A DNA stretch of 27,876 nt from Planctomycetales bacterium (GTDB lineage Bacteria; Planctomycetota; Phycisphaerae; SM23-33). The notes beneath the pieces are model-generated. The model saw nothing but the letters and a program-made list of their open reading frames with translations. It did not search any database and was not told the DNA's origin. The stretch is taken from NCBI GenBank assembly GCA_030673005.1, contig DAOVFI010000001.1, positions 1 through 27,876 of the forward strand, written 5' to 3'. The position numbers and the translations under genes are program-made. Below are positions 19,846 to 21,946 of the stretch, piece by piece (the first letter of the stretch is position 1; every line of letters starts with the position of its first letter).

Positions 19846-20697
19846 TTACAGTTTTACCTGACCGTATCGTCTGCTTTTTCTGCGGCGGATGATCAGTTTA
19901 TTCGAGGCTTTACGTTTTTTTCTGGTCCTTCCGCCTTTGGCCGGTTTTCCGGTCGGGCTGCACGGGTGCCGCCCGCCTCCGCTTCGACCCTCGCCGCCGC
20001 CCATCGGGTGAGCCACGGGGTTCTGTGCGACGCCGCGGACGTGCGGGCGCCGTCCCATGTGTCTCTTGCGACCGGCCTTGCCCAGGCGAACGTTTTGGTG
20101 ATCGAGGTTGCCCAGTTGCCCTATCGTCGCCCTGCACGCTGACGAGACGATCCGCATCTCGCCGCTGGGCAGGAGCAGGTGGACCGTTTTCTCTTCCTTC
20201 GCCATCAGCTTGGCCGAGCCGCCTGCCGTTCGGACCATTTTGCCGCCGCCGCCGGGAATCAGTTCGATGTTATGAATGCTCATACCGGACGGGATACGCG
20301 ACAAGGGCAGGCAGTTTCCCAGCCTTGGCTCGGCGTCGTCGCCGGAATATACCTTCTGTCCGGCCTTCAGGCCAACCGGGGCGAGGATGTAACGCTTCTC
20401 ACCGTCGGCGTATTTTATCAACGCGATGTTGCAGGTGCGGTTCGGGTCGTATTCGATCGTCGCTACGGTGCCTTCGGAGCCGTCCTTATTGCGCTTGAAG
20501 TCAATCAGGCGATACAAACGCATGGCCCCGCCGCCCCGGAACCCGCTGGTGATGACGCCATGATGGTTCCTGCCGCCGGTCTTGCGGAGCGGACGCAGAA
20601 GCGATTTGGTCGGCGCATCACCGGTCAACTCCTCGCGGAGATTGACGCTCGCGTTCCGCCTGCCCGCCGATGTCGGTTTGTAAATCCTGATTGCCAT
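19846..20697 (-). CDS. rplB: 50S ribosomal protein L2
   Basis: [19 protein letters not shown] and [12 protein letters not shown] motifs. Confidence 0.98.
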
Positions 20698-20789
20698 TGG
20701 TTACTCGCCCGTTTTCTGCCGGGACGTCCGTTTTTACCCAATACTATTCTATCTTTACTTCAATCGTAACTATTCACGCAATTGCAATA

Positions 20790-20964
20790 AATGCAGAAGA
20801 AAAGAGCAAGTCAGGCACACGAAATGAAAAAATAATTCATCTTCTGGAATTGTTTTTTCATTTCTCCGTCGCCTCTTACGTCCGCGCAGGGGTAGTATTT
20901 ATCACTCCAAACAGACGGAGTGATAAATACTATGTGTGCCTGACTTGCTCTTTTCTTCTGCATT
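20790..20964. mobile_element. 175-bp MITE-like element with 31-bp perfect terminal inverted repeats and two internal hairpins
   Basis: TIRs at 20790-20820 and 20934-20964. Internal stems: 20821-20838/20847-20864 (17/18 plus one G:T) and 20893-20908/20917-20932 (16/16). No coding capacity. Mobility is inferred only. Confidence 0.65.
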
Positions 20965-20984
20965 ATGCTGAACTCTTACCTTTT

Positions 20985-21269
20985 CTAAAACAGGTCAATA
21001 TGATAGTCCGGGTGCAGTACTACGACCGCCTTTTTCCAGTGACTGGTCGTGCCCATCTTGTATCCTACCCTTCGCGGCTTGCCCCGGCGATTGGCCGAGC
21101 GAACCTTCAGGACCTTGACGCTGTAGATCTTCTCAACGGCCTGCTTGATCTGCGCCTTGTTCGCTTCCGGGTGAACCTGGAAGGCATAAGCATTCCGCGT
21201 CTGCGACTGATGCGTGCCCTTCTCGGTCACCAGTGGTCGGACTATCGTGTTGTAAATATCGTTTTTCAT
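20985..21269 (-). CDS. rplW: 50S ribosomal protein L23
   Basis: RPLVTEK, ANKAQIKQAVEKIYSVKV and WKKAVV motifs. Confidence 0.97.
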   Translation of the reverse strand: MKNDIYNTIVRPLVTEKGTHQSQTRNAYAFQVHPEANKAQIKQAVEKIYSVKVLKVRSANRRGKPRRVGYKMGTTSHWKKAVVVLHPDYHIDLF

Positions 21270-21271
21270 AT

Positions 21272-21946
21272 CTATGCCGGCGCCTCAGCGTCCGACTTTG
21301 CATCCGCTTCTGCGACCGCCTTTTCGTCTGTCCGGTCCAGCAGCCTTTCCATCGCCTCGCGGGTCAGGAGCATTTTCTGCCGGGTGGCGACCTCAAATGC
21401 GTTCAGATCGTCCACCGGACGGACGGTAATATCCGGTATATTTCTTGCGCTCCTGTAGAGCGTCTCATCCAGCCCTGCCGGCACCAGCAGGCAGGAACGG
21501 TTTATCTTCAATTTCGCCATGACATCTGCTACGAACTTCGTCTTCGGCTCCTCAAGGCTCATCCCATCGACTACAAGCAGGTTCTGCCCGAGGATCTTGG
21601 CGAGGATTGCCGAATTCAGCGCCCCTCGTCGCATTTTTTTCGGAAGGGTTTTTCGGAAACTGTGCGGTGTTTTTGCGAAGGTCATTCCACCGCCGCGCAC
21701 CTTACCGGTCCGTATCGGACCCCGCCGGGCGTTTCCGGTTCCCTTCTGCTTGAAGATTTTCCGTGTAGAGCCTGCGACCTGTCCGCGTCCCTTTGTGGCG
21801 GCGCTTCCCTGCCGGCGGTTGGCGTGATAGGCGACGATCGCCTGCTTCAGCAGTGCGACGTTGACGGTCTTGCCGAAACGCTCATCGTCGATCTTCAGCG
21901 TCTCGACCTGCTCGCCGGCCGTGTTGTAAACGTTAACTTCCAGCAT
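21272..21946 (-). CDS. rplD: 50S ribosomal protein L4
   Basis: RQGSAATKGR, KQKGTGNARRG, RGGG and LPKKMRR motifs. Confidence 0.97.
   Translation of the reverse strand: MLEVNVYNTAGEQVETLKIDDERFGKTVNVALLKQAIVAYHANRRQGSAATKGRGQVAGSTRKIFKQKGTGNARRGPIRTGKVRGGGMTFAKTPHSFRKTLPKKMRRGALNSAILAKILGQNLLVVDGMSLEEPKTKFVADVMAKLKINRSCLLVPAGLDETLYRSARNIPDITVRPVDDLNAFEVATRQKMLLTREAMERLLDRTDEKAVAEADAKSDAEAPA

Follow-up and report, generated by a model that had tools for sequence, protein, structure and literature searches.

IRs of IS66-family ISs begin with GTAAGCG and are accompanied by 8-bp repeats (PMC11946415). Classical members of the family encode tnpA-tnpB-tnpC (PMC11946415), and members of the ISBst12 group have a single ORF. 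One of the latter, ISDge4 of Deinococcus geothermalis, has the ends GTGACTACTCAGCA and GTAACTGCTCAGCA and an 8-bp repeat, and its transposition has been observed (PMC12898284). A 2024 review of prokaryotic MITEs leaves IS66 unmentioned (PMC10969869), and our literature search found no paper combining ISBst12 and MITE. The Correia elements (CREE) of Neisseria are short, multi-copy intergenic foldbacks that form long dsRNA, and RNase III cleaves them when they are co-transcribed (PMC10969869). Another class of abundant palindromic intergenic repeats near gene ends is formed by the REP/REPIN sequences, which are mobilised by RAYTs. REPs measure about 20-40 nt and are not known to have DDE-type terminal repeats or target duplications.

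Here we describe an element in the rplW-rplB spacer of the S10 operon of a marine-sediment planctomycete that is very probably a non-autonomous IS66-family MITE of the single-ORF, ISBst12-like group. Like ISs of the ISBst12 group (e.g. ISDge4; PMC12898284), it has ends of the form GTAAC..(T/C)TCA(G/C)C, imperfect terminal inverted repeats (TIRs) and 8-bp duplications. It differs from them in having no transposase gene, in its length (214 bp versus approximately 1.5-1.6 kb) and in its interior, a 31-nt repeat with two hairpins, which is unrelated to any IS that we found; the MITE is therefore not a simple internal deletion of those ISs. The GTAA tip and the 8-bp duplication are also common to the MITE and classical IS66 (PMC11946415), but the tip of the latter reads GTAAGCG as opposed to GTAAC or GTAAGAG here, and the ISs associated with the MITE have one ORF and neither tnpA nor tnpB. 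The likeness to Correia elements lies in the short, multi-copy intergenic foldback with long dsRNA, which in the MITE would likewise be co-transcribed, whereas Correia elements have a TA duplication and another origin, and cleavage, promoter and IHF functions have been demonstrated for them (PMC10969869). Compared with REP/REPIN sequences, which are equally palindromic, abundant, intergenic and close to gene ends, the MITE stands apart by its terminal repeats and target duplications.

Extent and parts of the element in the rplW-rplB spacer

The window, i.e. the whole stretch of 27,876 nt analysed here, is contig C428 of the MAG G000 (3.32 Mb in 789 contigs, 86.6% complete), and the locus was found in marine-sediment metagenome runs. 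On the minus strand of the window, rplW (ribosomal protein L23; 20985..21269; Pfam PF00276, E = 1.3e-30) is preceded upstream by rplD and rplC of the same operon and followed by rplB (ribosomal protein L2; 19846..20697; Pfam PF00181 and PF03947). The gap between rplW and rplB is 287 nt, as the first-pass annotation of the window had stated. A complete copy of the MITE occupies positions 20766..20979 (214 bp, 39.7% GC) of this gap, its ends being derived from a comparison of about 40 copies. The stop codon of rplW is 5 nt and the start codon of rplB 68 nt away from it.

The first-pass annotation had delimited a 175-bp element by a perfect 31-nt inverted repeat (20790..20820 and 20934..20964), whose arms it took for TIRs. 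The repeat itself was confirmed: none of 100 shuffles gave such a match, and the 31-mer occurs at a single site within the window. Likewise, the GC content of the 175-bp core is 40.6%, close to the 41% estimated before, versus 57.9% for the genome. The proposed ends were not upheld. When about 40 copies were aligned with their flanks, conservation between copies ran 24 nt further to the left and 15 nt further to the right and then stopped abruptly. In public contigs from two runs, the sequences of other copies cease to follow the window at precisely 20766 and 20979, an independent confirmation of the borders of the element. Judged by these alignments, the 31-nt repeat is internal, and the true terminal repeats, which begin with GTAA, sit outside it.

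The left TIR (20766..20789, plus strand) reads GTAACTATTCACGC AATTGCAATA and is conserved in the family. Read on the minus strand, the right TIR (20956..20979) begins with GTAAGAGTTCAGC; further inwards, it runs into the 31-nt internal repeat and overlaps with its right arm. The outer ends of the MITE, GTAACTATTCACCC and GTAAGAGTTCAGCC, are imperfect terminal inverted repeats, and the family consensus of the ends is GTAACTATTCACCCAATTGCAATG on the left and, read inwards, GTAAGAGTTCAGCC(C/G)T on the right. Between the arms of the internal repeat lie hairpin A (20821..20864; 18-nt arms at 20821-20838 and 20847-20864, 17 of 18 positions paired, with a hypervariable 8-nt loop), a variable central spacer (20865..20892) and hairpin B (20893..20932; 16-nt arms at 20893-20908 and 20917-20932, all 16 positions paired, with an 8-nt loop). 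Both hairpins agree with the earlier description, and the weak third stem that it had suggested was present in the fold of the central spacer. The sole mismatch of hairpin A is a T at 20833. Every public contig covering the site (runs X1 and X3) and the other copies have a C there, and the T may be private to the window copy or assembly noise.

The octamers that adjoin the two ends, at the places expected for a target duplication, are CTTCAATC (20758..20765) and CTTTTCTA (20980..20987). The last three bases of the latter form the stop codon of rplW (TAG, minus strand), and the former is also part of a 62-nt module (20704..20765) between the MITE and rplB. This module is a second repeat, unrelated to the MITE, and has another copy at C637:15773-15834 (82% identity) that does not adjoin any MITE. 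The C637 copy adjoins a run of GGATTAC-like heptamers.

A family of short elements with IS66-type tips

The family comprises 68 loci on 64 contigs according to a BLAST inventory of the 3.3-Mb MAG, amounting to 0.41% of the assembly. Its copies are 75-97% identical and 212-441 bp long. Thirteen of the 68 loci touch contig ends, and the family thereby explains part of the fragmentation of the MAG. Nearly all copies are situated outside long ORFs, often 1-30 nt from an ORF end; this context was judged for the other copies only by their place relative to ORF ends, gene strand being left out because simple ORF calling assigns wrong strands in this GC-rich genome, as it did for the window copy. Of 37 copies, 11 had identical 8-bp flanks outside the GTAAC...GTTAC ends and 10 more had flanks that agreed at seven of eight positions (21/37 at 7/8 or better), whereas control flanks taken 16 nt further out peaked at 1-2 matches of eight. 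The target octamers are AT-rich (34% GC versus 58% GC in the genome). The large number of loci, their TIRs and 8-bp duplications, together with a near-identical population that lacks the element at the S10 site (see below), bear out the earlier suggestion of a new MITE family.

Variants of the family are modular, with hypervariable loops and conserved stems. Those of 234-238 bp have a 20-bp GC palindrome (CCTGCCTGCCGGCAGGCAGG) inserted in the loop of hairpin A (e.g. C167:2477-2710), those of 292-305 bp have an insert of about 90 nt (e.g. C645:2047-2350), and longer classes have further inserts. A subfamily (C344, C393, C188, and C721) has the ends GTAACyGTTCAG. At C322:4092-4129, a minimal element of 38 bp apparently consists of a left and a right terminal repeat only, head to head. 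At C526:10477-10503, another IS66-type element ends (GTAACACTTCAGCCGTTTGCAACGAG) and a MITE copy begins 26 nt further on, the two being nested or abutting. The starts of two contigs (C161:20-264 and C740:62-256) are perfectly palindromic about a central MITE copy, the flanks being each other's reverse complement; both arose by fold-back during assembly and do not represent real LL or RR elements.

Across the genome, 96 occurrences of the strict tip motif compare with about 2.7 expected, and they belong to the MITE family or to one of at least four additional families of short repeats with the same IS66-type tip. The ends of the latter begin with GTAACCGTTCAGGCT, GTAACAGTTCAGCCGTTTGCAAAGG, GTAACACTTCACCCGTATGCAATAAAATC, and GTAACACTTCAGCCGTTTGCAATAGAAG, and their loci include C131:1188-1288, C39:3626, C174:165, C369:6613/6737, C570:6729-7031, C183:488, C657:450, and others. 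One element among these families is only about 100 bp long. Given this excess in several short families, the spread of an entire set of MITEs in G000 appears to be the work of IS66-type transposases.

Outside this genome, a BLAST search over 99 genomes of the order gave weak partial matches only (in G086 and G079). The exact 21-mer core had no match in other GTDB species representatives and a single one, a chance match with unrelated flanks, in JGI metagenomes; plasmids and phages gave no match. The first-pass annotation had also offered a structured ncRNA as a reading, with Rfam as its check. The Rfam search returned nothing above threshold, and its two matches to plant miRNA precursors (24 bits versus cut-offs of 94-119) are typical of any long hairpin; a known RNA family was rejected. 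Going by the Rfam, plasmid, phage, GTDB and JGI searches, this is a new MITE family of a known kind, with IS66/ISBst12-type ends.

Relation to IS66-family transposases

The assembly has a single IS66-family transposase, according to tblastn searches with that of C387 and those of six relatives. It is encoded in a 1557-bp IS on C387 with the ends GTAACCGTTCA(C/T)GG and one intact ORF of 512 aa (DUF6444 and DDE_Tnp_IS66), whose scores were 125 bits for Pfam DDE_Tnp_IS66 (PF03050) and 248 bits for NCBIfam NF033517, where the cut-off is 180. Of 91 other genomes in this bacterial family, 19 have homologues of this transposase, and the ISs of six of those relatives have recognisable 24-nt ends, GTAACnnTTCA(C/G)CCGT(C/A)TGCAAC. 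The left TIR of the MITE matches these ends of single-ORF IS66-family ISs as well as the GTAACCGTTCA ends of the C387 IS, and the ends of the C344, C393, C188 and C721 subfamily are almost equal to the latter. One relative's IS has mixed CAGCC/CACCC ends, the same asymmetry as in the MITE, whose right end agrees with it at 19 of 21 positions, the best match to that end. The family consensus of the right end (GTAAGAGTTCAGCCGTATGCA) agrees with the end of the L078 IS at 19 of 21 positions.

The common sequence of the C387 IS and the MITE is limited to the outer 11-13 nt, and their subterminal sequences differ. A genome-wide search for an autonomous parent found no pair of ends more than 441 bp apart in the 86.6% complete assembly, and no IS in the assembly shares the subterminal sequence of the MITE, the feature sought as a sign of origin by internal deletion. 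Because the resemblance of the C387 IS stops at the tip and the MAG is incomplete to this extent, the true parent may have died out or be missing from the assembly. The MITE is consequently assigned to the IS66 type by its ends and duplications, not by a demonstrated deletion from a known IS. The four IS66-family IS copies with sequence on both flanks (L031, which is that of C387, L072, L077, and L080) had no clean 8-bp duplication, unlike the MITEs, and the flanks of the C387 IS have a 7-nt inverted match (ACCAAGT) in common. In a genome of the sister genus, an end at locus 1501-1549 of L063 (G086:C359) shares 84% identity with the MITE over the latter's first 50 nt, which span the tip and the start of the inner repeat, and is followed by an unrelated interior. 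This end type thus seems to be older than the genus.

The family may be explained by the following mechanism. An IS66-family DDE transposase, acting in trans, would bind the TIRs of about 24 nt (consensus GTAAC..TTCA(C/G)CC..TGCAA) and insert the element at AT-rich octamers with an 8-bp staggered cut, whose repair would leave the 8-bp target duplication. On this view, the 31-nt repeat and the two hairpins are internal cargo that makes a long foldback, not the ends recognised by the transposase. The S10-operon copy is a recent and tolerated insertion, 5 nt after the stop codon of rplW; as it has no terminator-like feature, rplB and the later genes would still be transcribed. The identity of the mobilising transposase, any continuing activity of the MITE and any effect of the insertion on the mRNA are inferred.

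Filled and empty alleles and the fate of the insertion

The rplW-rplB gap is 8-73 nt long in 29 relatives of the same family, order and class, and 8 nt in the closest of them (L2 86% identical). In runs X5 and X6, which belong to a different sediment study, a contig of 211 nt corresponds to 20547-20703 joined to 20985-21026, with one mismatch in each part. Here, 12 nt replace 20704-20984, leaving an 18-nt spacer without the MITE, and the population is about 99% identical to the window in both flanking genes. The junctions of the filled allele are bridged by contigs of two other runs (X1, 20509-20809 and 20937-21267; X3, 20434-20818 and 20936-21400), of which no single one covers the whole element, and the interior of this copy may thus blend several copies. 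The bridged junctions, the empty allele and the short gaps of the relatives show, at the level of assembled sequence, that the insertion is real, recent and polymorphic among close populations.

The comparison with an empty site, as proposed by the first-pass annotation, showed the absence of the element, but the difference between the alleles is not a clean single event. The flanking octamers of the window copy match at only 4 of 8 positions, and the 62-nt module at 20704-20765 is likewise missing from the empty allele of X5/X6. Since the alleles do not differ by the MITE and 8 bp alone, at least two events separate them. In mRNA sense, the spacer left in the empty allele (18 nt, GAAGTAACGGTATAACCA) includes GTAACGGTA, which is similar to an IS66-type tip and could be a coincidence or a footprint. 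In run X1, one low-depth contig has 27 other letters in place of 78 nt at the end of rplD and start of rplW (window 21269-21348), and this variant is probably the rplD-rplW junction of a related organism.

In mRNA sense, the element folds with -110.6 kcal/mol (z = -13.9) and a helix of more than 30 bp. In a fold of 351 nt, it formed its own closed domain, apart from the start region of rplB. No terminator-like site was found in the element, and the one weak promoter-like match at a junction (9/12) is within the expectation from shuffles. The genes rplB and those of the ribosomal proteins downstream are essential. Transcription must therefore read through the element, which we infer to be co-transcribed with the S10 operon and to put its foldback in the operon mRNA. 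The genome encodes RNase III (rnc) and, with the cleavage of Correia elements in Neisseria (PMC10969869) as a precedent, processing of the co-transcribed hairpin by this enzyme is plausible. If cleavage does take place, it would be incidental to the insertion and no sign of selection. Coupling by termination-reinitiation ceases once the spacer reaches about 20 nt (PMC10666635). Because relatives already have spacers of 8-73 nt, loss of coupling is unlikely to have been a strong barrier to the insertion. As for a coding function, an ORF that starts from an ATG in the inner repeat is open in many copies (50-90 aa). Its variable sites are distributed 5/8/5 over the codon positions, and its ratio of synonymous to non-synonymous changes (8:17) is no better than that of shifted frames; a small element-encoded protein was rejected.

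Other origins of the element have to be weighed against the IS66-type MITE. An IS630/Tc1-mariner-type MITE with 31-bp terminal repeats and a TA target, which the first-pass annotation had called loosely compatible with the TA dinucleotides that adjoin 20790 and 20963, is refuted, because conserved sequence reaches 24 and 15 nt beyond those points, so that both TAs are internal to the true ends at 20766 and 20979, and because the duplications are of 8 bp and the ends GTAA, as in IS66-family ISs. A duplication of 8 bp is not unique to IS66. The element could thus be a MITE of another IS family that duplicates 8 bp (e.g. IS256, ISL3, IS6, and IS1595), its GTAA ends being coincidental, and the lack of any parent with a matching subterminal sequence among the ends searched would fit this; the likeness of up to 19 of 21 nt to the ends of IS66-family ISs of the same bacterial family and the 11-nt tip shared with the genome's sole IS66-family IS make this very improbable. 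A repeat misplaced in the operon by the metagenome assembler would be conceivable in a MAG of 789 contigs with 13 family loci at contig ends and palindromic contig-end artefacts on C161 and C740, but it is hardly credible at this site, where, at each of the two junctions, independent contigs from two runs (X1 and X3) join unique flanking sequence to the element.

A functional alternative is that the S10 operon has co-opted the element as a cis-acting RNA, which would be under selection as a stability element or as a processing site for RNase III that uncouples rplW from rplB and the later genes. The strong fold and its helix of more than 30 bp, which suits RNase III, the presence of this enzyme in the genome, the documented cleavage of Correia elements (PMC10969869), and the lower variability of paired than of unpaired alignment columns across the family (0.18 versus 0.51 bits) all speak for such a role. 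Yet the site is empty in the 29 relatives and in the population of about 99% identity, and 67 further loci, in varied contexts, have the same structure, which also disposes of the conserved cis-regulatory RNA of the first-pass annotation by the very test that it had named. In addition, covariation amounted to 9 compensatory cells in 5 pairs as opposed to 50 broken ones, so that the case for selection on RNA structure is too weak. We therefore regard co-option as quite improbable, and the best-supported reading of the S10-operon copy is that of a tolerated passenger. A bolder proposal, to which we give slightly more room while still thinking it unlikely, is that IS66/ISBst12-type MITEs are aimed at the first few nucleotides past stop codons in tight operon spacers and that the S10 copy now functions as an RNase III or stability element, altering the rplW:rplB expression ratio. 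If this were true, a transposon-born processing site would exist in one of the most conserved operons of bacteria, in a naturally polymorphic state in which filled and empty strains could be compared.

With the element read as an IS66-type MITE, the odd gap of 287 nt in a normally tight ribosomal operon is explained by a recent transposon insertion, and a large foldback (-110 kcal/mol) is tolerated in the S10 operon. The filled and empty alleles in marine sediments constitute a natural pair for testing the effects of such an insertion on the operon mRNA.
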